Shown here piece after piece: positions 4,698-64,000 of a stretch of 64,000 nucleotides of DNA. The translations under genes were made by a program, and so were the position numbers. The notes below the pieces were generated by a model that saw only the letters and a list, made by a program, of their open reading frames with translations, searched no databases and was not told the origin of the DNA. How positions within the stretch are numbered: position 1 is the first letter of the stretch; every line of letters begins with the position of its first letter. The DNA comes from Steroidobacteraceae bacterium (GTDB taxonomy: Bacteria > Pseudomonadota > Gammaproteobacteria > Steroidobacterales > Steroidobacteraceae), in assembly GCA_046347255.1 (NCBI GenBank), contig JAXMGO010000007.1, positions 18,031 to 82,030 of the forward strand, written 5' to 3'.

Positions 4698-5348
4698 TCA
4701 GCCGGCCATCAGCCCCGGCTTGCCGGCCTGCCAGCGCGCGAGCTCGGTCTCGAGCAGCGCGACGTGCTCGACCTCCTCGGCGGCAAGCTCGCGGTAGAGC
4801 TGCTGTTCGGGCGAGCCGGCCGCCACGGTGCGGGCGCGCTCGGTGAAGAAGGCCACGGCGCGTTTCTCGAAGGTGATCGCGGCCCGGAACAGCGTGGCCG
4901 GATCGTCGATGGAGCCGTCGACGCCGGCGTTGATCGCCGCGATGTCGACGCGGAAGCCGGTGGTCGGCTCGGGCATGCTCACGTGGTAGCGACGGCTGAG
5001 CGTGTCCATGTGCTCGCGCTCCATCTCCGAGAAGCGCCCGAACAGCGCCTTGAGCACCGGGTCGGAGACGCGGGCGGCGGCACGGTCATAGAACGCCTGG
5101 CCGCCGAGTTCGATCTGGAAGGCGGCGCGGATCGCATCCAGCCCGGCCTCGCCCTTCACGGCGCCGCGGCTCAGGGCCTCGAGGCGGCCGCCGCAATGCG
5201 GGCACATGCCGTAGGGGAAGGCGAAACCCTCGCTCACCTTGGCGCAGCTCTGGCAGCGCCACTGCAGCGTCGCGCCGGCACAGCAGATGTAGGACTCCTC
5301 CGAGTCGAGTGGCTGCTGGCACTTCGGGCAGACTCCGACGCCTGACAT
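4698..5348 (-). CDS. rubrerythrin/ferritin-like diiron protein with N-terminal Cys-rich zinc-ribbon
   Basis: 216 aa starting MSGVGVCPKCQQ. Four CxxC pairs at N-terminus, then ferritin-like ExxH motifs (EMEREH, EEVEH). Same strand as and adjacent to the NfnAB-like gene. Confidence 0.75.
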   Translation of the reverse strand: MSGVGVCPKCQQPLDSEESYICCAGATLQWRCQSCAKVSEGFAFPYGMCPHCGGRLEALSRGAVKGEAGLDAIRAAFQIELGGQAFYDRAAARVSDPVLKALFGRFSEMEREHMDTLSRRYHVSMPEPTTGFRVDIAAINAGVDGSIDDPATLFRAAITFEKRAVAFFTERARTVAAGSPEQQLYRELAAEEVEHVALLETELARWQAGKPGLMAG

Positions 5349-5368
5349 GGTCGCGCTCCTTCGGCGGT

Positions 5369-7759
5369 TCAGTGGGACGTGGGCGTACCGGCGGGCGCCG
5401 CCGCGGCCGGTTTCGCGGGCGCGGCGGCCGCGGGTGCCGCGGCCTCGGCCGGCGCGACATCCTCGGGCAGCAACGGCCACTTCGACTTGCCGCCGCGCAG
5501 CCAGGTGCTGATGGCCTTCGCCGCGCGCCGTCCGGCACCCATCGCGAGGATGACCGTCGCGCCACCGGTGACGATGTCGCCGCCGGCGAACACGCCCGGC
5601 AGGTTGGTGCACTGGCTGGGTTCGTCGGCGGCGATGTTGCCCCAGCGATTGAGCGCCAGCCCCGGCGTCGCGCGCCCGATGATCGGGTTCGGTTTGGTGC
5701 CGAGGGCGTAGATCACCGTGTCGCAGTCGAGCTCGACGAACTCGTCCGTCGGCACCGGCTTGCGCCGGCCGCGCTCGTCGGGCTCGCCGAGCTGCATCTT
5801 CTGCACCTTCATGCCGCGCACGTCGCCGGCCTCGTTCAGCAGGATCTCGACCGGGCCGTGCAGGAAGAAGAACTCGACGCCCTCCTCGCGCGCGTGCCGC
5901 AGCTCCTCGATGCGGGCGGGCGCCTCGGCCTCCGAGCGGCGATAGACGCAGCGCACGCGCTCGACGCCGAGCCGGCGCGCCACCCGCAGGCAGTCCATGG
6001 CGGTGTTGCCGGCGCCGATGACGACCACGCTCTTGCCGCGGCTGATCGGCGTGTCCAGGTACGGGAAGCGGTCGCCGCCCATCAGGTTGACGCGGGTGAG
6101 GAACTCGTTGGCCGAGTAGACCTGGCCAGCGTTCTCGCCCGGGATGCCGAGGAAGGCGGGCGCGCCGGCGCCAGCGCCGACGAACACCGCGTCGTAGCCC
6201 ATGCGTCCCATCAGGTCGGGGATCGTGAAGGTCTTGCCGATGACCTTGTTGGTCTCGAAGCGCACGCCCATGTCGCGCAGGCGCTGAACTTCGCGCGAGA
6301 TGATGTCGCGCGGCAGGCGGAAGGCCGGGATGCCGTACTGCAGGACGCCACCGAGCACGTGCAGCGCCTCGTACACCGTGACCTCGCCGCCCTCGCGCAC
6401 CAGGTCGGCTGCGGCCGCGAGGCCCGCGGGTCCCGAGCCGACGATGGCGATGCGGCCGAGCTTCGCGGCCACCTTGGGCGGCACCGCCTTCGGCGCGCGC
6501 GCATGGTCGCCGACGAAGCGCTCCAGGCGGCCGATGCCCACGGCCTCGAGCTTCGGCGCCTTGCTGCGCAGCAGCAGGCACTGCGCCTCGCACTGGGTCT
6601 CCTGCGGGCAGACGCGGCCGCACACCGAGGGGAAGACGCTCGATTCGTGGATGGTCGCGAGCGCGCCGTCGAAGTCGCGCAGCAGCACCTTGCGGATGAA
6701 GGTCGGGATGTCGATGCCGACCGGGCAGCCGGCGATGCACGGCGCCTTGTTGCACTGGATGCAGCGCTCGGCCTCGCGCAGCGCGTCGGCGATCGAGTAG
6801 CCGAGGTTCACCTCGTTGAAGTTGTGCGAGCGCTCCGACGCGTCGCGCTCGGGCATGCGCACCTGCTCGGGCTCGAGGGCGGCGAACTTCTTGTAGTTGC
6901 GCCGCCCCTGCGTCACCAGCTGCTTCTCGACCTGGCAGACGTGCTCGAGGTCGGCGTTGGCCTCGGCCTCCTGGGAGCGGAAGCGCTTCTGCCGCGCCAT
7001 CAGCTCCTTGAAGTCGACCTGGTGGCCGTCGAAGTCCGGGCCGTCGACGCAGGCGAACTTGACCTCCCCGCCCACCGTCACGCGGCAGGAGCCGCACATG
7101 CCGGTGCCGTCCACCATGATGGTGTTGAGCGAGACCAGGGTGCGCACGCCGTAGGGCCGCGTGGCCTCGACGCAGGCGTTCATCATCGGCAGCGGGCCGA
7201 TGGCGATCACCAGGTCGGGGCGGTCGCGCTCCAGCACCTCTTTCAGCGGCCCGGTGACCTGGCCGGCGCGGCCGTAGCTGCCATCGTCGGTGCCGATGAT
7301 CAGCTCGTCGCAGCTGGCCCGGAACTTGTCCTCCCAGAAGACCAGCGGCTTGCTGCGGAAGCCCATGATCGCGGTGGTGCGGTTGCCGGCCGCGCGGAAG
7401 GCCCGCAGCTGCGGGAACACCGGCGCGACGCCCAGGCCGCCGCCGACCAGCACCACGTGGCCGACCTTGGCGACATGCTGCGCGAGGCCGAGCGGACCGA
7501 CGAAATCCGGGAAGCTGTCGCCCTCGCGGAAGTCCTCGCGCATCTCCTGCGTGGTCTTGCCGAGCGTCTGCACGACCATGGTGACGGTGCCGCGCTCGCG
7601 GTCGAAGTCCGCGACCGTGAGCGGGATGCGCTCGCCGCCCTCGAACAATCGCACCATGACGAAGTGCCCGGGCTCGGCGGCGCGCGCGATGTCCGGCGCC
7701 TCGACCTCCCAGAGGAAGGTGGATTCGGTCAGGTCCTCGCGCCGGACGATCGGGTACAT
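5369..7759 (-). CDS. fused NfnA-like (FAD/NAD, 2Fe-2S) and GltD-like (NADPH-dependent glutamate synthase small-subunit family) oxidoreductase
   Basis: 796-aa single ORF. N-terminal ~280 aa is PyrK/SudB-like (GGGLGVAP, C-x-C cluster). The remainder carries GltD-type Cys clusters (CIQCNKAPCIAGCP, CGRVCPQETQCEAQC) and a GSGPAGLAAA FAD/NADPH motif. Confidence 0.8.
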   Translation of the reverse strand: MYPIVRREDLTESTFLWEVEAPDIARAAEPGHFVMVRLFEGGERIPLTVADFDRERGTVTMVVQTLGKTTQEMREDFREGDSFPDFVGPLGLAQHVAKVGHVVLVGGGLGVAPVFPQLRAFRAAGNRTTAIMGFRSKPLVFWEDKFRASCDELIIGTDDGSYGRAGQVTGPLKEVLERDRPDLVIAIGPLPMMNACVEATRPYGVRTLVSLNTIMVDGTGMCGSCRVTVGGEVKFACVDGPDFDGHQVDFKELMARQKRFRSQEAEANADLEHVCQVEKQLVTQGRRNYKKFAALEPEQVRMPERDASERSHNFNEVNLGYSIADALREAERCIQCNKAPCIAGCPVGIDIPTFIRKVLLRDFDGALATIHESSVFPSVCGRVCPQETQCEAQCLLLRSKAPKLEAVGIGRLERFVGDHARAPKAVPPKVAAKLGRIAIVGSGPAGLAAAADLVREGGEVTVYEALHVLGGVLQYGIPAFRLPRDIISREVQRLRDMGVRFETNKVIGKTFTIPDLMGRMGYDAVFVGAGAGAPAFLGIPGENAGQVYSANEFLTRVNLMGGDRFPYLDTPISRGKSVVVIGAGNTAMDCLRVARRLGVERVRCVYRRSEAEAPARIEELRHAREEGVEFFFLHGPVEILLNEAGDVRGMKVQKMQLGEPDERGRRKPVPTDEFVELDCDTVIYALGTKPNPIIGRATPGLALNRWGNIAADEPSQCTNLPGVFAGGDIVTGGATVILAMGAGRRAAKAISTWLRGGKSKWPLLPEDVAPAEAAAPAAAAPAKPAAAAPAGTPTSH

Positions 7760-7989
7760 GGTCCACCGGGACGCCCGCAGGGCGGGCTCATTGCAGGATG
7801 GATATCGGTAACACGCGGCCCACGGGCCAGCAAGTCAGGAAGAACCGTTAGGCCCTGCGCGTGCGGCGCAGTCCGTGGGGTTCCTGGCCGCCGGGGCTGC
7901 GGCGGCGCGGCCATCGGCCGCCGCCCCCGATGGCGGGGCGGGCGACGCCGGGTGCCGGTCCGGCGGGGAGGCCTCCGGCCTGGCCGTGC

Positions 7990-10434
<2,445 letters not shown>

Positions 10435-11496
10435 TTATAGCGTGATAACGCGTCCTTGTTCCACGTGGAACGCGCGCTCCGGAGGGCCGAATTCCGGGCG
10501 GTCGGGGTCGAGGCTGGTGATGATCAGCTGGCAGTCCAGGCTGGCGATTTCATCGATCAGGAGGCGGGTCTTCTCGCGGTCGAGTTCGGCGGCCGGATCG
10601 TCCAGCAGCAGCATCGGCAGGCGCTCGGGCGCCGTCCTGGACGCCAGGCGGGCCATGGCCAAGGTCATCGAGGCGCCCAGGAGCTTCTGCTGCCCCCGGG
10701 AGAGCACTTCGCGCGCCAGCCGGCCCTCCACCTTCAGCGCCACATCGAACCGATGGGCCCCGGTCCCGGTGCTCCCGCGCTCCCGATCCCGGGCTAGGTG
10801 CAGGGCGAGCGATTCCATCAGGCTGTGCTCCTGGCTCCAGCCCCGGTGGAAACTCCAGTCGAGCTCCAGCCCCCCCAGCAGGCGCCGGCAGATCGCCTGC
10901 CACTCCGAATGCAGGGCGTCGAGCAGCGACTGGCGCGAGAGGGCCAGCCCCTCCCCCAGCCGTGCAAGCTCCGGGTCCCAGGGATCCGTGGAATCTCCGA
11001 GCTTGAGCGCGGCGTTCCGCTGCCGCAGGGCCCGGGTGTAGTCGCTCCAGGCCCGGATGAAGCCAGGTTCCACGTGGAACACTCCCCAGTCGACCCAGCG
11101 ACGCCGCTGGAGGGGTCCCTCCTCGACCAGACGGTGGATCCCCGGGTCGATCAGCTGCAGCGGAAGCAGGGCCGACAGCTCGGCCAGTGAATCCACGGGG
11201 CGGCGATCGATCCGGGCCTCGACGCCGCGCTCCCGGTCGCAGCCGACGCCCAGATCGTGCGGCAGGTTGTCCGCCGTACGCCCGAAGACCAGGAGCCGGG
11301 CCTCGCCCCGCCGGATGAGCCGCTCGGTGTTCCGCGTGCGGAAGGAGCGTCCGCGCCCCAGCAGGTGGATGGCCTCAAGGAGCGAGGTCTTGCCCGATCC
11401 GTTGGGACCGGAGATCAGGTTCAGCCGCGGAGCGAATTCCAGCTCCGCGGCCGGGATGCAGCGCAGGTCCTGGACCCGAAGCTCCTGCAGGCTCAT
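10435..11496 (-). CDS. recF: DNA replication and repair protein RecF
   Basis: 353 aa. Walker A GPNGSGKTSLLEAI; synteny. Confidence 0.95.
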   Translation of the reverse strand: MSLQELRVQDLRCIPAAELEFAPRLNLISGPNGSGKTSLLEAIHLLGRGRSFRTRNTERLIRRGEARLLVFGRTADNLPHDLGVGCDRERGVEARIDRRPVDSLAELSALLPLQLIDPGIHRLVEEGPLQRRRWVDWGVFHVEPGFIRAWSDYTRALRQRNAALKLGDSTDPWDPELARLGEGLALSRQSLLDALHSEWQAICRRLLGGLELDWSFHRGWSQEHSLMESLALHLARDRERGSTGTGAHRFDVALKVEGRLAREVLSRGQQKLLGASMTLAMARLASRTAPERLPMLLLDDPAAELDREKTRLLIDEIASLDCQLIITSLDPDRPEFGPPERAFHVEQGRVITL

Positions 11497-55329: not shown

Positions 55330-55997
55330 GGTCGCACCGCAGTGTAGCAACGGCATTCGGGCGTCGCCCGCGAGGCCGTACCGGCCGGCGGCGCGGCGGC
55401 AGGCGCAGGGGCGATCGCCGGACGATGAAGCGCTGACTCTGCTATATTCCTCGCCCGCTCGCCGCAGCCCGCGGCGGCACCCGAACGGGAAAGCTGTTGG
55501 CCAAGACTCCGAACTATCGCCAGCAGAAGCGCCAGAGGGAACTGACGCGCATGTCGCGGCAATCCGTCAAGCAGCAGGCGCGCCGGCCGCGTGCCCCTGA
55601 GGATGCGAGCCCCGCGTCCGACGCCGCCTCCCCCGACGTCCGCCCGGAACCCAAGTGATGGCCGGCGCCGCGGACCAGGGGGCGCCATGGTGACCACGAT
55701 GATCATCCTGCTCGCGGCCAGCAGCGCCTGGCTCTGGTGGCGACTCACCTGCGCCAACGGCCTCAACGCCGAACTGCGCTCCGAGCTGGCGAAGTTGCGC
55801 CGCAAGGTCCAGGCGCGCGGCTAGCTGGCTGGCCGCGTCGACGGGCACGCCGGGCCAGCATCCGCTTCGACTCCGCCGCATCGGCGGCTCATTCGATGTT
55901 CTGCACCTGCTCGCGCAGGCCGGCGCCAAGATTCTGATTTATCGGCACAATGTCTTATTCAGAATTGGTCCAGCTACATAGCTAGCTACAGAGCAGG

Positions 55998-57116
55998 CTA
56001 CGCTTCTTCGGTCCACTGGTAGCGCACCCTCAAGTGGTTCAGGCGATTGTATGGAACCAGCTTTTCGTGCTGAAGCCTGCCAACAACGATGCTTGGCGCA
56101 ATTCCTATGGAATTCGCGAACTGAACAATTCCAGGTTCGGTAATCGCGAGATTAGACGACACGAATTCGGACCACTTATTTGGAGGAATGAGGCGATTTC
56201 TGGAGAACTCGTTCGCTTCCTGTTCGTGCTCCTCCGTCATTCCGGACTCTTCCAAGAAGAGGATTTTCTTGCCGTGCAAGGCAATGTGTCCGCACTCGTG
56301 GAAGAAGGTGAACCACAGCACGTCGTCGCTAAGTTGTCGGACACTAAGTTGGATTAGCGCCTTGTTTGGGGAAAGCCAGCGAACGGCCCCACTAATCGGG
56401 CAGCCCTTAGGGGCCCTCACGATTACTACAGCGACGCCACACTCCGCGAAAAGTTTCCTCAATTTCGGAACGTAATCCGAGGGTTCCCTCTCCACCGTCA
56501 TGGCGCGAGCTTCTTGAACCGCAGCCATGAACTTGTCTCGATCAAAGGGCGCGCACTCAACGTGGCTGGCCTGCAATTCGCCTGCTCGTAGCCAAGCAGC
56601 TACAGAACCCTGTTTGGCCTTGACCTTTTCCGATGCTCGATAGGCCGCGCCCTGAACCTCTTTGACGCAGTGCTCCTGCCATGCGGCAACGGATGCGACG
56701 CCAAAATAGCGGAGGCATTCCTCGACGACAGCCGCCGATCTGCCGGCGGTCTTGATCCAGCCAAATTTGCGCATGTCCAGCAGCGGGAGTTGATCCAGCC
56801 AAGAGACGCTTTGCTCAAGTTGCTCCGTGGCTTCCTCACGAGCTTTGGCTTCCTGGAATCGGGCATCACGGCTAAGCCAGAAGGCTGCAGACGTTCCAAG
56901 GGCCTTTTCCAGAGCAAGCGCCGTTCCCGGAGTGATCGCGACTTTTCCGGCAATCAATTCGTTTACAAACTTCGGCGTGACACCCATGCGCGTGGCCAGC
57001 TCGTTTTGCCGAAGCGCTCTCTCTTCAAGTAAGTCGGCCAGGGTGTCCCCGGGTGGGCTCAGCGAGGAAGGGCGGTACTGGGTTTCGATGTGGTGCTCAG
57101 TCATGGTAGTTGCCAA
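55998..57116 (-). CDS. XRE-family HTH protein fused to ImmA/IrrE-family (COG2856) zinc metallopeptidase; HigA-like antitoxin/regulator
   Basis: N-terminal HTH (…LRQNELATRMGVTPKFVNELIAGK…), C-terminal HEXXH (FFHECGHIALH) with downstream E. Overlaps the upstream HigB-like gene by 20 nt. Confidence 0.75.
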   Translation of the reverse strand: MATTMTEHHIETQYRPSSLSPPGDTLADLLEERALRQNELATRMGVTPKFVNELIAGKVAITPGTALALEKALGTSAAFWLSRDARFQEAKAREEATEQLEQSVSWLDQLPLLDMRKFGWIKTAGRSAAVVEECLRYFGVASVAAWQEHCVKEVQGAAYRASEKVKAKQGSVAAWLRAGELQASHVECAPFDRDKFMAAVQEARAMTVEREPSDYVPKLRKLFAECGVAVVIVRAPKGCPISGAVRWLSPNKALIQLSVRQLSDDVLWFTFFHECGHIALHGKKILFLEESGMTEEHEQEANEFSRNRLIPPNKWSEFVSSNLAITEPGIVQFANSIGIAPSIVVGRLQHEKLVPYNRLNHLRVRYQWTEEA

Positions 57117-57450
57117 TGAAGACGACGCGGATGGCTGTGACCTCTGCGAGATTCACAGAGCCATCTGGAAGATGTGGAACCGGATTCTTGGCTGGTTCAA
57201 CAACCAACCGAAATCCCCCGGTGAGGTGAAAAGCGTACTGACCCGCCCGGTCGGCCTTGAGTGCATGAAAACGCCCCGGCAGGGACGGAGCGACTGCCAG
57301 ATGCTGAGCGGCATCCAGATCTGCTAAGCGCGCAAAAAGTTTTCTTGCGCAGGGGGCACCAAGAACACCTGTGGCAAAGGATTGGTCATGGCACAGCGTC
57401 TCCAGCTTCTTGGAGCGGAAAACTATATCCACGCAGGGTCCGCCTGTCAA
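57097..57450 (-). CDS. higB: HigB-like (RelE/ParE superfamily, 'killer protein') toxin
   Basis: 117 aa. …RFHALKADRAGQYAFHLTGGFRLVVE…VTAIRVVFIGNYHD resembles the HigB/plasmid-maintenance killer family. First gene of a two-gene toxin-then-antitoxin arrangement. Confidence 0.65.
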   Translation of the reverse strand: MTGGPCVDIVFRSKKLETLCHDQSFATGVLGAPCARKLFARLADLDAAQHLAVAPSLPGRFHALKADRAGQYAFHLTGGFRLVVEPAKNPVPHLPDGSVNLAEVTAIRVVFIGNYHD

Positions 57451-57540
57451 AGAATTTCATGCACCTTAAGGGTTATTGAAATTCTATTCCACTCCGATTA
57501 CTATGCACCGGACATGTTAATCAATTCGGAGCTGACACTC

Positions 57541-57855
57541 ATGAACATTCCCCACGACTCGGCTGAAAAGGTCGCCCAGCACAATCCTCAAGAGCCGCCA
57601 CATATCCGGCATCAGGAGCATCCGCCACACCCAGATCCCAATCTGGTTTCGGTAACCCTCAACCGCAACCCCGTGACCATTCGCCGCGGCCAGTACACCG
57701 GCGCGGAATTGAAGGCCGCCCTGGGAGTGCCTGCTGATCACGAGCTCGATCTGGTCGTGAACGGCGAGTTCAAGCCCATCGCCAACGAGGACAAACACCA
57801 TGTCCGCGGCGGCGAGGTCTTTGTCAGCCAGGTGGGGCAGGGCCAGTCCTCGTGA
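57541..57855 (+). CDS. ubiquitin-like beta-grasp protein (multiubiquitin/BilA-like Ubl) of Ubl-conjugation operon
   Basis: 104 aa. GGAG ribosome-binding site 10 nt upstream. His/Pro-rich N-terminal tail then a single beta-grasp-like segment (VTLNRNPVTIRRGQYTGAELKAALGVPADHELDLVVNGEFKPIANEDKHHVRGGEVFV), ending QVGQGQSS. Stop overlaps the start of the next gene. Confidence 0.55.
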   Translation: MNIPHDSAEKVAQHNPQEPPHIRHQEHPPHPDPNLVSVTLNRNPVTIRRGQYTGAELKAALGVPADHELDLVVNGEFKPIANEDKHHVRGGEVFVSQVGQGQSS

Positions 57856-58187
57856 CCGAGGAGGAGTCCCAGCTGCAGGGCCTGCTCTCCATCAGTGAGC
57901 AGGCTGCTGTGGTTCAGGACGGCGCGATCCTGGGTGTCTTGCTGCCCGGCATCCGCATCCAGTCTCCAGCTGGAACCGAAGTCATGGACGCCATGCTTTG
58001 TCCGCGCGGACAGGGCGGCTACGTAACGCGGCTACTGTTGGAGCGGCGGGTCCCGGGCCGAGACAACCTCAATTGGCAGCAGGTGATGGCCTTCGGGCGC
58101 AACTGGCAGACCTGGAGCTGGCAGAACGTCCCGGCCGCGCAGCCGTGGATCAACATCTTTGCCGCCCACGCGAGAGTACTGAGGTGA
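57852..58187 (+). CDS. small putative E2-like (UBC-fold) protein of the operon
   Basis: 111 aa, GTG start overlapping the Ubl stop (GTGA). Positioned where E2 sits in Ubl-E2-JAB-E1 operons. Single Cys (AMLCPRGQGG) as candidate catalytic residue. Assignment is by position only. Confidence 0.35.
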   Translation: MTEEESQLQGLLSISEQAAVVQDGAILGVLLPGIRIQSPAGTEVMDAMLCPRGQGGYVTRLLLERRVPGRDNLNWQQVMAFGRNWQTWSWQNVPAAQPWINIFAAHARVLR

Positions 58188-58702
58188 AGACACACCTCAA
58201 GATCCCGGGCTCGTTGTTGCATGAGATCCATGAGGATCTGTCTCGCCCACACAAGTTCGCGGCCGAGCGGGTCGGGTTCCTTACGTGCGGGATCGCCGAT
58301 GATGGTGGTGGGGGCCACGTTCTGCTGGCCAACCGTTGGCATAGCGTTGCCGACGAGGATTACGTGGACAACCCTCGGGTCGGGGCGGCGATCGGTGGAG
58401 GTGCGTTCCGCAAGATTCTGCAGTACGCCTACAGCAACCCCGTGAGCATCCTTCATATCCATCGCCACGATCACCGCGGCGCCCCGAGGTTCAGCCCGAC
58501 CGATTTGCGCAGCGCCAGTGAGTACGTACCGAGTTTCTTCAATGTCCAGCGCGCGATGCCGCACGGCATTGTGGTGCTCAGTCTCGACCATGCCGCCGGG
58601 CAGGTTTGGGATTTCGGGCGGTCGGCAGCCAGGCAGATTGATGTATTTCAGGTTGTGGGCTATCCGCTGATTGTGGGCTATCCGCTGAGGAAGTGGCAAT
58701 GA
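58184..58702 (+). CDS. JAB/MPN (JAMM-type) metallo-isopeptidase
   Basis: 172 aa, GTG start overlapping the upstream stop. His-rich metal site HIHRHDH…FSPTD (H-x-H…S-x-x-D) and upstream Glu (HEIHEDL). Carries the 18-bp tandem duplication listed as a repeat below. Confidence 0.7.
   Translation: MKTHLKIPGSLLHEIHEDLSRPHKFAAERVGFLTCGIADDGGGGHVLLANRWHSVADEDYVDNPRVGAAIGGGAFRKILQYAYSNPVSILHIHRHDHRGAPRFSPTDLRSASEYVPSFFNVQRAMPHGIVVLSLDHAAGQVWDFGRSAARQIDVFQVVGYPLIVGYPLRKWQ
58653..58688 (+). repeat. perfect 18-bp tandem duplication (TTGTGGGCTATCCGCTGA x2) at 3' end of JAB gene
   Basis: Read directly: copies at 58653-58670 and 58671-58688. In-frame, duplicating VGYPLI/VGYPL. Confidence 0.9.
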
Positions 58703-59523
58703 ACATCAGCCAGCGGTCCAAGCGACAGAGCTTTTTGGGCGACGATAGTGACGAGGTGTTGGCTGGCCTCACCATCGCGGTTATCGGCGCCAGCGGCGGC
58801 GGTTCCCATATTGCGCAGCAACTGGCCCACGTCGGCTTTGGGGCGGTCCATCTGATCGACCATGATCACGCGGAGGAACATCATCGTCACCGCCTCATCG
58901 GCATCAGCCGGGCCGCTGTGAAACACGCCTGGCCCAAGGTCAATGTCCTGCGGCGGCTTATGCAAAGGATTCACCCGGAAGGCCGCGTCATCATTCACCC
59001 GAAGCGCTGGCAGGAGGTCCACGAAATCCTCCGCACCTGCGATCTGGTCTTCACCTGCATTGACGGGTATCTGGCGCGAGAGGAGATCGAGCGCTACTTG
59101 CGCCGCTACCTGGTGCCGATGATCGACGTCGGAATGGACGTGGTGAAGATTGCCGCCGGCCATCAGATCCGCGGGCAGATCATCATTTCAATGCCCGGGT
59201 ACCACTGCATGCGCTGCTTCGGGTTCATTCGCGATGACCTTCTCCGCGCCGAAGCTGCAAAGTACGGGGACGCTGGCGAATTCCCCCAGGTCGTCTGGTC
59301 GAACGGCGTTCTCGCGTCGACAGCTGTTGGTATTGCGACCTCGCTGTTCCTGCCTTGGCAGAGCCGGGACAACTCCTGTCCGTACTTGATCTACGACGGC
59401 AACGCTTCCACGGTGACACCGAGTCCACGCTTGTTGCATCTGCCGGCGTCATGCCGGCATTTCGATGGCCTGGCCATTCCAGGTGACTTGGTCATGTTCC
59501 CCAATTCAACGGCCGCCGCATGA
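58699..59523 (+). CDS. E1-like ThiF/MoeB-family adenylyltransferase
   Basis: 274 aa. Rossmann nucleotide loop IAVIGASGGGSHIAQQL, LIDHD, CxxC (HCMRC). ATGA overlap with the JAB stop. Confidence 0.8.
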   Translation: MNISQRSKRQSFLGDDSDEVLAGLTIAVIGASGGGSHIAQQLAHVGFGAVHLIDHDHAEEHHRHRLIGISRAAVKHAWPKVNVLRRLMQRIHPEGRVIIHPKRWQEVHEILRTCDLVFTCIDGYLAREEIERYLRRYLVPMIDVGMDVVKIAAGHQIRGQIIISMPGYHCMRCFGFIRDDLLRAEAAKYGDAGEFPQVVWSNGVLASTAVGIATSLFLPWQSRDNSCPYLIYDGNASTVTPSPRLLHLPASCRHFDGLAIPGDLVMFPNSTAAA

Positions 59524-59760: not shown

Positions 59761-60966
59761 GTGAGCAAACCGAAACCCGACTTCCAGCGCCCCCAAGCCG
59801 CCGCGCTCGCCGCCCGCCTCGCCGAGCCGCGCCGCTTCGTCCAGGTGGTCGCGGGCCCCCGTCAGGTCGGAAAATCCACGCTGGTCCAGCAGGTCACCGG
59901 CGGGCTCGATGTGCCGGTGCGCTACGTCAGCGCCGACGAACCGACGCTGCGCGCCGCGGACTGGATCGACCAGCAATGGGAAGCTGCCCGCCTCGAAGGC
60001 ACCGGCAAGTCCGGCTCCGTGCTCGTGCTCGACGAAATCCAGAAGATCCCGGCATGGTCCGAGACGGTCAAGCGCCTCTGGGATGAGGACACGCGCAAGA
60101 AGCGCCCGCTCAAGGTGGCGCTGCTGGGCTCGGCCCCGCTGCTCATCGCCCAGGGGCTGACAGAAAGCCTGGCCGGCCGGTTCGAGACGCTGCGCCTGCC
60201 GCACTGGTCGTTCAGTGAAATGCGCGAGGCCTTCGACTTCACGCTCGATGACTACCTGTACTTCGGCGGCTATCCCGGTGCGGCGCCGCTGGTGCGTGAT
60301 CCGGCGCGCTGGGCTCGCTACATCGCCGACAGTCTCATCGAGACCTCGATCTCGCGCGACGTGTTGCTGCTCACGCGCGTGGACAAGCCCGCGCTGCTGC
60401 GGCGACTGTTCGAGCTGGCCTGCCGCTATTCGGGCCATGTGCTCTCGTACACGAAGATGCTCGGCCAGCTGCAGGATGCCGGCAACGCCACGACGCTCGC
60501 GCACTACCTCGACCTGCTCGCCGGCGCCGGCATGGTCCGCGGCCTGCCGAAATTCGCGGGCGACGTGGCGCGCAGCCGCGGCTCCAGCCCGAAGCTGCAG
60601 GTGATGAACACGGCGCTGATGACGGTGACCGCGGGCCTGAGCCCCGCCGAAGTGCGTGCCGACCGCGAGTTCCGCGGGCGACTGATCGAGTCCGCGGTGG
60701 GCGCGCATCTGGCCAACGCCGCGGCCGCGGGGGAGTGCGAGCTGTTTTACTGGCGTGACCGGGGGCAGGAGGTGGATTTCGTCGTCCGCTCCCGCAATCG
60801 GCTGGTCGCGATCGAAGTGAAGAGTGGCCGCGCGCCGCAGGCCCATGCGGGGACGATGGCCTTCGCGGCGGCGTTCAAGGTTCGAACCTCGCTGCTGGTG
60901 GGCGGAGATGGGATCCCCGTGGAAGAATTCCTGACGCGGCCGGTCGCACACTGGCTGGCAGACTGA
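59761..60966 (+). CDS. AAA+ ATPase with C-terminal DUF4143-like domain
   Basis: 401 aa, GTG start. Walker A GPRQVGKST, Walker B VLVLDEIQ. C-terminal region typical of the AAA_14/DUF4143 ATP-binding protein family. Confidence 0.8.
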   Translation: MSKPKPDFQRPQAAALAARLAEPRRFVQVVAGPRQVGKSTLVQQVTGGLDVPVRYVSADEPTLRAADWIDQQWEAARLEGTGKSGSVLVLDEIQKIPAWSETVKRLWDEDTRKKRPLKVALLGSAPLLIAQGLTESLAGRFETLRLPHWSFSEMREAFDFTLDDYLYFGGYPGAAPLVRDPARWARYIADSLIETSISRDVLLLTRVDKPALLRRLFELACRYSGHVLSYTKMLGQLQDAGNATTLAHYLDLLAGAGMVRGLPKFAGDVARSRGSSPKLQVMNTALMTVTAGLSPAEVRADREFRGRLIESAVGAHLANAAAAGECELFYWRDRGQEVDFVVRSRNRLVAIEVKSGRAPQAHAGTMAFAAAFKVRTSLLVGGDGIPVEEFLTRPVAHWLAD

Positions 60967-61015: not shown

Positions 61016-62866
61016 ATGCGTACCGCTGAAGATCTTTTACTCGAACTGCATTCGGTGGATGAATCCCATCGGATCGAGGCGAAGCGCGCGACACAGATCG
61101 ATCGGTCGGTTCTGGAGACCGTGTGCGCGTTCAGTAACGAGCCCGGCCTCGGCGGGGGCTATTTGCTCCTGGGCGTCGCGCACGATTCCGGCGATCTCTT
61201 CAACAACAAGTATGTAGTGGATGGCATCAGCAACCCTGACAAGTTGCAGTCCGATCTCGCCAGTCAATGCGCCAGCGCGTTGAACCGTCCCGTGCGGCCA
61301 CGAATCTCTGTCGAGACGTTGCAGGGCAAGTCAGTCCTTGTGGTCTTCGTACCGGAGGCCGCTCCGACCGAAAAGCCTGTTTTCCTTTCCAATCTCGGTC
61401 TTCCCAGAGGCGCATTCCGCCGCATCGGTTCCACGGATCAGGAAGGCACGGAAGATGACCTGATCGCTCTCTACGCTGGACACCAGCAGGACACTTACGA
61501 CGGCGCGGTTGTGCAGGACGGTGATCTTTCCGACATCGATCCGGCAGCCATCGCGGACTATCGAGAGCAGCGTCGACGTATCAATCCGGACGCCGAGGAG
61601 CTGACATGGTCCGACGCTGATCTGCTTCGCGCCGTGGGTGGCGCCAAGCTTGAAGGAAATCAGCTGAGGCCCACCGTGGCTGGCGTCTTGCTGTTCGGTA
61701 CTGCTGCCGCTCTCCGACGTTGTTTCCCGATGATGCGTATCGACTACATTCGCGTCGCTGGGAGGCAATGGATCGAGAATCCGGAACATCGCTTCGACAC
61801 GTTGGAAATCCGTGCACCATTGCTGACCGCCATTCGGCGCGCCACGAATGCCGTGCGGGATGAGCTCATCCAGTCCTTCTCCCTTCCGGAGGGTTCTCTC
61901 GCGCGAGAGGACGAGCCCGCTCTGCCGCTTCGGGTCATACGCGAAGCCGTGGTGAATGCCGTCATGCACCGCAGCTACCGCACGCACGGCGCCATTCAGA
62001 TCATCCGCTATGCCAACCGGCTGGAAGTGCGCAATCCCGGGCATTCGATCAAGGCCGAAGAGCAGCTGGGGGAAGCCGGGTCCGAAACCCGCAATCCGCG
62101 GATAGCGGCGGTTCTGCATGATGTGAACGTCGCCGAGACCAAAGGCAGCGGCATCCGCGCCATGCGCGAATTGATGCTGGCACAGAACCTCCTACCGCCT
62201 GCGTTCGAGTCGACCCGCCGGCCGGACCAGTTCGTTGCCACCTTCCTGTTCCATCACTTTCTGGGCGATTCCGACCTGGCCTGGTTGCGGCGGCTCTCCC
62301 AGGAGGCGCTCTCCGACGAGGAATCCCGGGCCCTGGTGTTCGTTCGCGAGGTTGGGGCAATCGACAACGCCGCGTACCGAGCCATCAACCGAACAGACAC
62401 CTTGAACGCCTCTGCGCATCTGCGGCGCCTGCGTGATTTGGGTCTGTTCGAGATGAAAGGCGCCGGCAACCGGGTCTACTACGTACCCTCGGCCACCTTC
62501 TCCCGCTGTCTGGAACCGCAGGCCCAGCCCGCACCCGCGGATTCCCACCAGCTATCCACGGATCCCCACCAGGTATCCCAGGATCCCCACCAGCTACTGG
62601 CGCAGATGCCCGAGGCTCTCCGGGCTCGCTTGCCTGCGCCCGGCAGCAAACCCCGCAAGGACGTCTTGCGCAGACTTCTGCAGGATCTTTGCAGCTGGCG
62701 CGCGCTGAGCGCCAGAGAACTCGGAGCCATTCTCGCGCGCCGCGACCACAAGGAGCTGGTCCGCGAGCACTTGACCCCCATGGTGGCTGAGGGGGCTCTC
62801 GCCTACACCGTCCCGGAAATGGAAAACCATCCGGATCAGCGATACACGGCGGCTGCTCGCCCATGA
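61016..62866 (+). CDS. Schlafen/AlbA_2-domain + HATPase_c_4 + wHTH protein ('RecG-like transcriptional regulator' family)
   Basis: 616 aa. N-terminal AlbA_2-like segment (…HRIEAKRATQIDRSVLETVCAFSNEPGLGGGYLLLGV…), then a central ATPase-like region and a C-terminal winged helix. Three 21-nt tandem repeats near the 3' end. Confidence 0.65.
   Translation: MRTAEDLLLELHSVDESHRIEAKRATQIDRSVLETVCAFSNEPGLGGGYLLLGVAHDSGDLFNNKYVVDGISNPDKLQSDLASQCASALNRPVRPRISVETLQGKSVLVVFVPEAAPTEKPVFLSNLGLPRGAFRRIGSTDQEGTEDDLIALYAGHQQDTYDGAVVQDGDLSDIDPAAIADYREQRRRINPDAEELTWSDADLLRAVGGAKLEGNQLRPTVAGVLLFGTAAALRRCFPMMRIDYIRVAGRQWIENPEHRFDTLEIRAPLLTAIRRATNAVRDELIQSFSLPEGSLAREDEPALPLRVIREAVVNAVMHRSYRTHGAIQIIRYANRLEVRNPGHSIKAEEQLGEAGSETRNPRIAAVLHDVNVAETKGSGIRAMRELMLAQNLLPPAFESTRRPDQFVATFLFHHFLGDSDLAWLRRLSQEALSDEESRALVFVREVGAIDNAAYRAINRTDTLNASAHLRRLRDLGLFEMKGAGNRVYYVPSATFSRCLEPQAQPAPADSHQLSTDPHQVSQDPHQLLAQMPEALRARLPAPGSKPRKDVLRRLLQDLCSWRALSARELGAILARRDHKELVREHLTPMVAEGALAYTVPEMENHPDQRYTAAARP
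62540..62602 (+). repeat. 3 x 21-nt imperfect tandem repeat (GATyCCCACCAG…) inside Schlafen-like gene
   Basis: Copies at 62540-62560, 62561-62581, 62582-62602 encode DSHQLST/DPHQVSQ/DPHQLLA. Confidence 0.7.
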
Positions 62867-62897
62867 CCCTTCGCACACTGGCTGACAGACTGACACC

Positions 62898-64000
62898 ATG
62901 ACCGAGACTCCCGAACAGAAAGCCCGTCACGACATCGACGCGAAGCTCATCGCGTCCGGCTGGCTCGTGCAGGACCGCGATGACCTCGACCTGACCGCCA
63001 GTCGCGGCATCGCCGTTCGCGAGTTCCCGATGAAGTCCGGCTTCGGCTTCGCCGACTACCTCCTCTACCTCGACCGCAAGGCCGTGGGTGCGGTCGAAGC
63101 AAAGGCTGCCGGCACCCTGACCGGCGTCGAGGCGCAGTCGGCCAAATACGCGGCCGGCCTGCCGGAAAACCTGCCCGCACATCGCCGTCCGCTGCCTTTC
63201 CTGTTCGAGTCCAACGGCGCGGTGACATTTTTCACGAACGGCCTCGACCCGAGGCCGCGTAGCCGCAAGGTGTTCAGCTTCCCGCGCCCCGAAACGCTGG
63301 CCGAGTGGGTGAGTCAGCCCGCCTCGATGCGCGGCAATCTCACTCACCTGCCGCCGCTCGGGGATGCCGGCCTCTGGAAAGTGCAGCACCAGGCCATCAC
63401 CAGCCTCGAAGGCTCGCTCGCCAAGGGCAATCCGCGCTCGCTCGTGCAGATGGCCACGGGTTCGGGCAAGACCTTCACGGCAGTGAACGCCGCCTACCGC
63501 CTGCTCAAGTTCGGCGGCGCGAAGCGCATCCTGTTTCTCGTGGATCGCGGCAACCTCGGCAAGCAGACCGAGGACGAGTTCGCCAACTTCACGCCGCCCG
63601 ACGACACGCGCAAGTTCCCGACGCTGTACACCGTGCAGCGGCTCAAGAGCAATTCGATCAACCCGGCCGCCAAGGTCGTCATCACGACCATCCAGCGCCT
63701 GTATTCGATGCTGAAGGGCGAGCCGGACTTCGACGCCGAGAGCGAGGAAGGCTCCAGCTTCGACACTGCCAAGCCCTGGAAGGGAGAGCCGCCGGACGTC
63801 GTCTACAACGCCGGCATCCCGCCGGAATTCTTCGACGTAGTGATCGTGGACGAGTGCCACCGCTCCATCTACGAGCTGTGGGCGCAGGTGCTGCTGTACT
63901 TCGATGCCTTCCTGATCGGCCTCACCGCGACACCGGCCGGCCGCACCATCGGGTTCTTCAACAAGAACCTCGTGATGCAGTACGGCCACGACGAGGCCGT
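62898..64000 (+). CDS. hsdR: type I restriction enzyme R subunit (HsdR), N-terminal part; continues past window
   Basis: MTETPEQKARHDIDAKLIASGW… N-terminal nuclease-like region, then helicase motif I (MATGSGKT) and DEAH-like VVIVDECHRS. Confidence 0.85.
   Translation, partial: MTETPEQKARHDIDAKLIASGWLVQDRDDLDLTASRGIAVREFPMKSGFGFADYLLYLDRKAVGAVEAKAAGTLTGVEAQSAKYAAGLPENLPAHRRPLPFLFESNGAVTFFTNGLDPRPRSRKVFSFPRPETLAEWVSQPASMRGNLTHLPPLGDAGLWKVQHQAITSLEGSLAKGNPRSLVQMATGSGKTFTAVNAAYRLLKFGGAKRILFLVDRGNLGKQTEDEFANFTPPDDTRKFPTLYTVQRLKSNSINPAAKVVITTIQRLYSMLKGEPDFDAESEEGSSFDTAKPWKGEPPDVVYNAGIPPEFFDVVIVDECHRSIYELWAQVLLYFDAFLIGLTATPAGRTIGFFNKNLVMQYGHDEA

Follow-up and report, generated by a model that had tools for sequence, protein, structure and literature searches.

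A Steroidobacteraceae operon encoding four separate proteins for ubiquitin-like conjugation very likely belongs to the Bub (6e) lineage

We analysed a 64,000-nucleotide stretch of a Steroidobacteraceae metagenome-assembled genome (MAG; GenBank assembly GCA_046347255.1, contig JAXMGO010000007.1, positions 18,031 to 82,030; hereafter the window), which contains at 57541-59523 on the plus strand a four-gene operon encoding a ubiquitin-like protein (Ubl), a small E2-like protein, a JAB peptidase and an E1. Sequence comparison indicates that this cassette is an unfused, BubE-less and unannotated branch of the Bub/6e systems that fits neither Bub type by the published definitions, and it is not a categorically new kind of system. 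That the operon is a Bub-lineage conjugation system we consider very likely, and its best explanation as a whole, a split and minimal four-protein Bub (Iyer 6e) system working through the steps proposed below, we hold to be fairly probable. The more specific suggestion that the Ubl would travel by an oxyester route through Tyr189 of the E1 and Ser89 of the E2-like protein is one towards which we lean by analogy with Bub. A preliminary description of this DNA had called the operon "Bil/6E-type"; the 6E superfamily was correct, whereas the Bil (BilABCD) part was not, given an E1 of 274 aa with a single domain and an E2-like protein nearest to BubB.

Bub is family 6e of Iyer et al. and has also been called DUF6527. 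Type I Bub consists of BubAB, in which Ubl and E2 are fused, a JAB-E1 fusion (BubCD) and BubE, Type II of a Ubl, an E2-E1 fusion and BubE, and "all Bub operons encode BubE", a DUF6527/PF20137 serine protease (Ye et al. bioRxiv 10.1101/2024.11.21.623953). The same study assigned the chemistry to a tyrosine of the E1 crossover loop (BubCD Tyr370) and a serine of the E2 (BubB Ser333). Bub pathways are the only Ubl cascades reported on Tyr/Ser oxyesters, with no known target or phenotype.

The four open reading frames (ORFs) of the window operon overlap by their stop and start codons (GTGA at 57852-57855, GTGA at 58184-58187 and ATGA at 58699-58702) and, on this layout, are co-transcribed, probably with translational coupling. 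All three overlaps had been claimed in the preliminary description and were verified in the sequence, and its parts list was likewise upheld by a ubiquitin-conjugating (UBC) fold model, a JAMM fold, a ThiF adenylation domain and a Ubl homologous to the final beta-grasp domain of multi-ubiquitin proteins; the motifs that it named, HxH...SxxD in the JAB and a glycine loop with CxxC in the E1, are present. NCBI annotation of the MAG gives the identical four products of 104, 111, 172 and 274 aa, naming the first three "hypothetical protein" and the E1 "ThiF family adenylyltransferase"; an alternative upstream GTG at 58693 would give an E1 of 276 aa.

Evaluating the distribution of this cassette revealed the same four genes, abutting and in the same order, at all 33 loci from species-representative genomes (32 intact, 1 decayed). 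Further intact relatives were seen at three separate loci in metagenomes, at the site encoding the fusion protein P0235 and on the Rhizobium plasmid pRL4b1, for about 38 loci in total, and because order and abutment are kept in 33 loci plus the metagenome and plasmid loci, across at least five phyla, the arrangement is not a chance one. An exhaustive profile search returned 242 clusters at 50% identity (E<=1e-3), and the lineages represented were Pseudomonadota, Acidobacteriota, Spirochaetota, Chloroflexota and Saccharibacteria, along with conjugative plasmids. Genome matches included Steroidobacteraceae, Burkholderiales, Rhodanobacteraceae, Moraxellaceae, Phenylobacterium, Anaerolineaceae and Syntrophobacteraceae, many Acidobacteriota (Geothrix fermentans DSM 14018 and Terriglobus among them), Spirochaetota and Saccharibacteria. 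The JAB used as query matched ten plasmids, nine of them near full length and mostly conjugative (Rhizobium, Bosea, Methylocystis, Sphingobium and others) and the tenth a Spirosoma remnant, and it had no match in the phage collection. A metagenome scan with P0235 returned its own contig and one weak match only.

The E1 matches ThiF (PF00899, E 1e-22) and possesses a glycine loop, GASGGGS, and a C170-x-x-C173 pair, while PADLOC "E1-E2" models match it weakly. Compared with PDB sequences as a single sequence, it was closest to the E1 half of Citrobacter BubCD (1e-18), with Uba4 next at 4e-7, and the family profile returned BubCD at 4e-26, ahead of TcdA (5e-18) and of MoeB and ThiF (both ~1e-17). 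The family shows no variation at the adenylation residues R65, K80 and D122, and R65 aligns with BubCD R227, the adenylation-site arginine mutated by Ye et al. Across 35 E1 sequences no Cys is conserved in the crossover region that follows C170-x-x-C173, and Tyr189 is invariant there within the motif Y-G-x-A-G-x2-P-Q-V-x-W-x-N-G; the window E1 itself holds no Cys between C173 and C226. This E1 family shares its Y-x6-P-[QS] spacing with two canonical BubCD proteins that are linked to DUF6527 and encoded on plasmids of Mesorhizobium and Pseudanabaena. Motif alignment makes Tyr189 the probable candidate for the E1 nucleophile. The CxxC pair, also considered for that part, was rejected, as it sits before the crossover region and pairs with the invariant C252/H254. 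MoeB and ThiF likewise have a structural zinc motif ahead of the crossover region, and C170-x-x-C173 with C252/H254 is probably such a structural zinc site.

The E2-like protein, which the preliminary description had flagged as tiny and unverified, is given a confident UBC fold by structure prediction (predicted local distance difference test, pLDDT, 90.6), and its nearest solved structure is BubB of the Citrobacter Type I Bub, not BilB. Searches of its sequence found no match in Pfam, NCBIfam or PADLOC, curated models scanned against 80 of its relatives gave one marginal Prok-E2_E match (E 0.058), and both sequence and profile returned only noise from PDB sequences. An alignment of 150 representatives (50% identity clusters) has Ser89 in 148 of the 148 aligned sequences. 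This serine lies in a W-x-x-W-S-W motif whose window sequence, GRNWQTWSWQNVPAAQPW, resembles BubB GKSWQRWSRH and LWFSWHLAQPW, the carriers of the catalytic Ser-x-His, and Y57, R60, N74, W75, W85, W90 and H106 are further invariant or near-invariant positions. Ser89 is a probable candidate for the E2-like nucleophile, its equivalence to the Bub serine again being by motif alignment. Two residues beyond Ser89 the family has Gln, Asn, Arg or Lys (Gln91 in the window), not the His of Bub, and where Type I Bub has its Asp the family appears to have the invariant Arg60; a conserved histidine, His106, exists but elsewhere in the sequence than the Bub His. Cys50, the other residue considered as nucleophile, was down-weighted: it is poorly conserved, being kept in 90 of 151 relatives, and in the alignment it falls on a proline within the canonical LPPGYP motif.

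The JAB has its catalytic and zinc-binding residues in place (E28, H93-x-H95 and S104-x-x-D107), and the predicted model (pLDDT 93.9) together with sequence comparison shows a JAMM fold with intact zinc ligands. Like the E2-like protein it has no match in Pfam, NCBIfam or PADLOC. Its family profile found BubCD as best sequence match in the PDB (E 0.015), with H93, H95, S104 and D107 aligned to BubCD H91, H93, S101 and D104, and with E28 carrying the same number in both proteins. Its predicted activity is trimming of the Ubl tail, possibly along with deconjugation.

The Ubl precursor is predicted by homology to possess, after its N-terminal tail, one beta-grasp domain of the multi-ubiquitin type. 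A match to Pfam Multi_ubiq, a check that the preliminary description had proposed, was indeed seen, but at 18.5 bits it stays under the 24.5 cutoff, and 3 of 22 members of the Ubl family match that model at E<=0.01. The homology is carried by P0235, a 360-aa Ubl3-E2 fusion. Its first and second domains match solved multi-ubiquitin Ubls of three domains (E 4e-24), its residues 157-239 are 44% identical to the window Ubl (E 8e-18) and its residues 241-360 align with the window E2-like protein. These alignments imply that the first two window genes are the split form of a Ubl-E2 fusion, cut exactly at the processing junction; the fusion persists in a few relatives such as P0235, and nearly all others are split like the window.

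The C-terminus of the window Ubl reads ...VGQG101-Q-S-S. Free-standing members of its family end in F[VIL]SH..x-G-[G/Q/S/M]-S-[S/A]-stop, in which the Gly at -4 is invariant, and the fused Ubl-E2 relatives have the same G-x-S-[SA] at their junction. With such a tail behind an invariant Gly the JAB probably trims the Ubl to Gly101, and the guess in the preliminary description that the GQGQSS ending reflects JAB processing thus finds support in family-wide conservation. Gly101 is most likely the mature C-terminus after removal of Q-S-S, parallel to the cut that BubCD makes after Gly229 (Ye et al.); a cut one residue further on, which would leave a Gly-Gly end in most relatives and Gly-Gln in the window, is less likely. 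At its other end the precursor begins with about 35 residues rich in His and Pro (57541-57645, HNPQEPPHIRHQEHPPHPDP), probably disordered. Among close relatives this tail varies in sequence and maintains its composition, and other family members have 0-2 additional beta-grasp domains instead; metal binding or a disordered tail are possible roles.

Several results weigh against the Tyr/Ser reading or parts of it. All 19 of the closest E2-like homologues have Cys50, so that a thioester route is possible for the window member itself, and the hhalign comparison of the serine motif with BubB gave E 0.0025 with a probability of 12%. Neither set of partners of the Bub serine (His and Asp in Type I, Lys and His in Type II) is conserved; the window has Gln91 and Arg60. 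A MAFFT alignment of the E1 loop with BubCD is offset by 2 residues. For the Ubl, a profile search of the PDB found no solved Ubl, returning designed repeat proteins that we judged to be noise, and the residue after the invariant Gly is Gln in the window, which leaves the cleavage site uncertain.

We propose the following course of events. As a speculative first step, the operon would be held off by a divergently encoded helix-turn-helix (HTH) protein with an M78 peptidase domain (HTH-M78, described below) and induced by stress or DNA damage, as with CapH/CapP in relatives, or by infection. The JAB would then remove the precursor tail, most likely Q-S-S, to expose Gly101, as conservation suggests, and the E1, of homodimer type, would adenylate the Ubl C-terminus with its conserved adenylation residues. 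By homology to BubCD Tyr370 and BubB Ser333, the Ubl would pass to a Tyr189 oxyester, from there to a Ser89 oxyester and finally to target lysines; such a relay is likely because the E1 crossover region is Cys-free with an invariant Tyr189 and because Ser89 is invariant where Cys50 is kept in only part of the family. As a further speculation, the JAB may reverse conjugation in the absence of BubE.

Other explanations of the same four proteins were weighed against this scheme. In a Bil-type (BilABCD-like) thioester cascade, cysteines of the E1 and E2 would carry the Ubl to phage structural proteins, and the gene order Ubl-E2-JAB-E1 equals that of BilABCD, C170 and C173 of the E1 are conserved, the closest E2-like homologues share Cys50 and the surroundings resemble a defence island; domain architecture and residue conservation nevertheless disfavour such a cascade, which we regard as very improbable. 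Iyer et al. 2006 predicted that the E2-like domains of family 6e are inert and RWD/UEV-like, and on that prediction the 111-aa protein could be an inert adaptor, with the Ubl moved directly from the E1, acting non-covalently or forming a filament. We find this improbable, as the near-invariance of Ser89, W90, H106, Y57 and R60 over 150 diverged relatives looks more like an active site than a scaffold, and the equivalent Ser is required for conjugation in Bub. Almost no weight goes to a sulfur-carrier pathway (ThiS/MoaD/CysO/QbsE-like), in which the JAB would trim, the E1 adenylate and a thiocarboxylate serve a small-molecule product: the E1 does also match ThiF, MoeB and Uba4 models, but its nearest relative, BubCD, leads the next by 8 orders of magnitude in E-value, the operon never lacks its conserved UBC-fold partner, what recurs nearby are regulators of the kind typical for defence and stress operons, and no ThiG, MoaE, CysM, rhodanese or other acceptor gene lies near the window operon or recurs in related loci.

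The biological role of the proposed Bub-type system is a separate matter. Its island, plasmid and regulator context points to a role that is probably in defence or stress response, and an anti-phage function is possible, though we hold it tentatively because even canonical Bub gave no phage protection, none having been seen so far with any phage tested (Ye et al. bioRxiv 10.1101/2024.11.21.623953; PMC13373217). This also counts against a defence reading of the window operon, and a stress role was raised by the authors of that work. With the same enzymology, the system could serve a general DNA-damage or stress response or the maintenance of a plasmid or mobile element, modifying host proteins instead of providing anti-phage immunity, and the DNA-damage responsiveness of CapH/CapP-type regulators, the presence of the cassette on conjugative plasmids and its absence from the phage collection, and the exonuclease, PD-(D/E)XK and UvrD genes flanking some relatives all suit this alternative. 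Set against it, the window neighbours are typical of defence islands (a PDC-S01 ATPase at 1e-174, a Schlafen/AlbA_2 protein and a ResIII subunit) and some related loci adjoin AbiE, so that we treat it as rather unlikely in itself and still as a serious alternative for the role.

Clustering of the ORFs within 5 kb of 36 loci showed that the only recurrent neighbours lie upstream and divergent, an M78 peptidase at 21 loci and a small HTH protein at 17, and that no downstream gene is conserved. This is the CapH+CapP arrangement, which is found with 31% of Bub operons as well as with many defence systems and responds to DNA damage, and CapH-CapP fusions are documented. The window HTH-M78 protein matches HTH_3 (3e-9), Peptidase_M78 (4e-6), TIGR02607 HigA (1.6e-13) and the PADLOC models PD-Lambda-2_B (2.6e-31) and capP (1e-6). 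Its orthologues, at 39% identity, adjoin the same operon at the Noviherbaspirillum malthae locus (L027) and at L009/L010, and the protein is a candidate repressor and sensor at the position held by CapH+CapP in relatives.

Between this gene and the operon lies a gene for a HigB-like protein, which itself has no Pfam match and is 36% identical (E 3e-16) to an L009/L010 ORF bearing a weak Pfam HigB-like_toxin match and 29% identical to its L027 counterpart. Because homologue alignments begin at residue 7, its true start is probably GTG 57432 or further downstream, and a sigma-70 consensus match of 11 out of 12 (TTGACA-17-TATAGT, 57450-57422, minus strand) falls inside the 5' end of its longest ORF. 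This protein may belong to the regulatory module, or it may be a toxin that travels with the operon. The HigB-like and HTH-M78 pair stands beside the Ubl operon at three independent loci with 29-39% identity (window 55998-57450, minus strand; L027 6083-7508; L009 1185-2616), in a layout identical to the window at L027 and alongside a CapH/CapP pair at L009/L010. At two of these loci it stands where other relatives have CapH/CapP, and it could either serve as a different regulator module or be a toxin-antitoxin pair travelling with the operon. In the 90-bp intergenic region a perfect 9-nt inverted repeat, AGAATTTCA-N17-TGAAATTCT (57451-57459 and 57477-57485), overlaps the -35 element of a promoter-like TTGAAA-17-TACTAT (57476-57504) upstream of the Ubl gene and is by its sequence a candidate operator; the equivalent region of L027 also has inverted repeats, of different sequence. 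A different arrangement was seen upstream at L001, L011, L019, L020 and L025 (e.g. L001 5147-6736, minus strand), where a conserved 526-541-aa protein without a Pfam domain and a 61-aa ORF follow the HTH gene and replace the M78 peptidase; this may be another type of sensor or regulator.

Table. Features of the operon and its surroundings in the window (positions are those of the window)
Feature	Position	Strand	Remarks
HigA-type HTH fused to ImmA/IrrE (M78) metallopeptidase	55998..57116	-	372 aa
HigB-like small protein	57097..57450	-	divergent from operon; 111 aa from GTG 57432
Candidate divergent control region	57451..57504	.	inverted repeat and promoter-like site; function putative
Ubl precursor	57541..57855	+	104 aa; ORF list and sequence
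E2-like protein, minimal UBC fold	57852..58187	+	111 aa
Stand-alone JAB/JAMM metallopeptidase	58184..58702	+	172 aa
E1, single ThiF-type adenylation domain	58699..59523	+	274 aa from ATG
AAA_14 + DUF4143 ATPase	59761-60966	+	PADLOC candidate PDC-S01, near end-to-end, E 1e-174; directly downstream of E1
Schlafen AlbA_2 + HATPase_c_4 protein with weak Fic-like C-terminal domain	61016-62866	+	616 aa
ResIII/DEAD helicase, restriction endonuclease R subunit by weak HSDR_N match	62898-64000	+	N-terminal 367 aa; runs past window end

The operon sits in a stretch of lowered GC content: the spoT-rpoZ-gmk region has 0.70-0.79, and from about 55.5 kb as far as the end of the window the value falls to 0.56-0.66. 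The low-GC island beside toxin-antitoxin and restriction genes that the preliminary description had reported is borne out by this fall, the HigB/HigA-like pair and the ResIII/HSDR_N subunit. The left border, at about 55400-56000 directly past gmk, is a sharp drop from 0.70 to 0.56; ARAGORN found no tRNA gene there in a search of 50-64 kb of the window, and no integrase was seen in the portion of the island inside the window. The PDC-S01-like ATPase is not a conserved neighbour of the operon in related loci, and the Schlafen AlbA_2 protein gave partial matches to PADLOC pAgo (7e-21) and SIR2-associated (3e-11) models. A long minus-strand ORF at 62385-63989 is probably an antisense shadow of the restriction subunit.

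Variation around the cassette was also seen elsewhere. At L046 (R. leguminosarum pRL4b1, 1542-2945 and 6541-10486), L044 (3637-6345) and L006 (3512-4870 and 8425-10757) an RNase_T/ExoI-like exonuclease follows the CapP gene and, downstream of the E1, there is either a PD-(D/E)XK nuclease paired with a UvrD helicase or an SNase paired with a 601-aa protein of unknown kind; these bracketing nuclease and helicase genes may be accessory effectors or adjacent systems. Decayed copies include a solitary JAB with no partners at L008 (Pararobbsia alpina, 7001-7480) and L043 (7667-9483), with fragmented E2-like and E1 genes. The Spirosoma linguale plasmid pSLIN02 (L047, 4001-5188) carries a JAB remnant in one frame with an E1 of 45% identity, its 5' end cut by a Tn3 transposase and its Ubl and E2-like genes absent, so that the sole JAB-E1 fusion seen in this lineage is itself a decayed copy.

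No BubE (DUF6527, PF20137) was found among the eight window genes around the operon or in the Pfam-annotated loci L001-L010, and the BubE signature C-x3-C-x30-45-H-x2-C taken from Iyer et al. occurs in no ORF at the loci examined, a result that speaks for the loci and not for whole genomes. Canonical plasmid Bub operons have DUF6527 directly after the JAB-E1 gene. One such operon, on a Mesorhizobium plasmid (L048), has a gene for a 494-aa "phosphotransferase" (4815-6299) inserted after the JAB-E1 gene and ahead of BubE, together with a divergent RES/Xre toxin-antitoxin pair upstream.

A second widespread lineage would provide an independent test of Tyr/Ser chemistry, having kept the Tyr and the Ser while the surrounding catalytic residues changed and BubE was dispensed with. 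Its four activities lie in separate proteins of small, soluble size, a minimal system for reconstitution, and cultured hosts carry the cassette (Geothrix fermentans DSM 14018, Noviherbaspirillum malthae, Terriglobus and Rhizobium leguminosarum plasmids). As Pfam, NCBIfam and PADLOC fail to recognise its E2-like and JAB families, such operons are annotated as three hypothetical proteins and a ThiF, and they escape catalogues based on DUF6527 or Prok-E2.

Comparison with Bil systems clarifies what is and is not shared outside the Bub lineage. Bil is defined by a large IAD-AAD-CYS E1 (BilD) with a catalytic Cys and by an E2 (BilB) with a Cys/His site, and its anti-phage conjugation to a phage tail protein has been demonstrated, conjugation to phage structural proteins having been shown for Bil alone (Millman 2022, Chambers 2024, Hor 2024). 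The window operon shares with Bil the four genes Ubl-E2-JAB-E1 and a removable Ubl tail after a conserved Gly, a feature that Bub has as well and that does not discriminate, and Type II Bil Ubls are of the multi-ubiquitin type like the window Ubl. Unlike Bil, the window E1 is a single ThiF domain without the IAD-AAD-CYS architecture, and the E2-like protein lacks a conserved catalytic Cys with an adjacent His. The Cap2/Cap3 module of Type II CBASS resembles the operon in its homodimer-type E1 adenylation domain, its non-canonical E2 without C-terminal helices, its JAB and its CapH/CapP regulation; Cap2, however, is a Cys-using E2-E1 fusion whose substrate is the CD-NTase, whereas the window encodes its E2 and E1 separately and no CD-NTase cyclase or effector gene lies near the window operon. 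In the sulfur carriers QbsE/QbsD and CysO/Mec+ a JAMM protein trims a short tail after the Gly of a small beta-grasp protein ahead of ThiF-type adenylation, two residues after Gly-Gly in the case of QbsE/QbsD. These pathways are not known to include an E2-fold protein, and their links are to sulfur-acceptor enzymes.

The closest known system is Type I Bub of Citrobacter sp. RHBSTW-00271 (PDB 9ea4/9ea5/9eae/9eav), the nearest solved structure for the window E1, E2-like protein and JAB alike. The two share the domain order Ubl, E2-like, JAB, E1, a Cys-free E1 crossover region with a conserved Tyr, an E2-like protein that lacks a conserved Cys and has its invariant Ser in a W-S-x motif, maturation of the Ubl at a conserved Gly by a JAB, as predicted for the window, and CapH/CapP-type regulators upstream. 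They differ in that a stop codon parts the JAB gene from the E1 gene in the window, the two being likewise separate at all of the ~38 intact related loci, and in that the window Ubl and E2 genes are separate where BubAB is fused, although canonical DUF6527 operons can be unfused too. The companions of the Ser also differ, with Gln, Asn, Arg or Lys for His and apparently Arg60 for the Type I Asp, and the stand-alone Ubl of the window family retains its G-x-S-S tail, whereas unfused Ubls of canonical Bub operons terminate directly in Gly. With Type II Bub (6e.2: BubA, BubBD and BubE) the operon has in common a multi-ubiquitin-type Ubl and, probably, a Cys-independent E1/E2 chemistry; Type II differs by its E2-E1 fusion, by normally having no JAB and by always having BubE, as against an unfused E2 and E1, the presence of a JAB and the lack of BubE in the window. 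Taken together, these comparisons may describe a third, Cys-independent and Bub-like type, a suggestion that we see as finely poised, made of four free-standing proteins without BubE, in which the JAB would be both the maturase of a G-x-S-S-tailed Ubl and the only deconjugase, the catalytic Ser would be backed by Arg60 and His106, and a HigB and HigA-M78 pair would replace CapH/CapP in some lineages.

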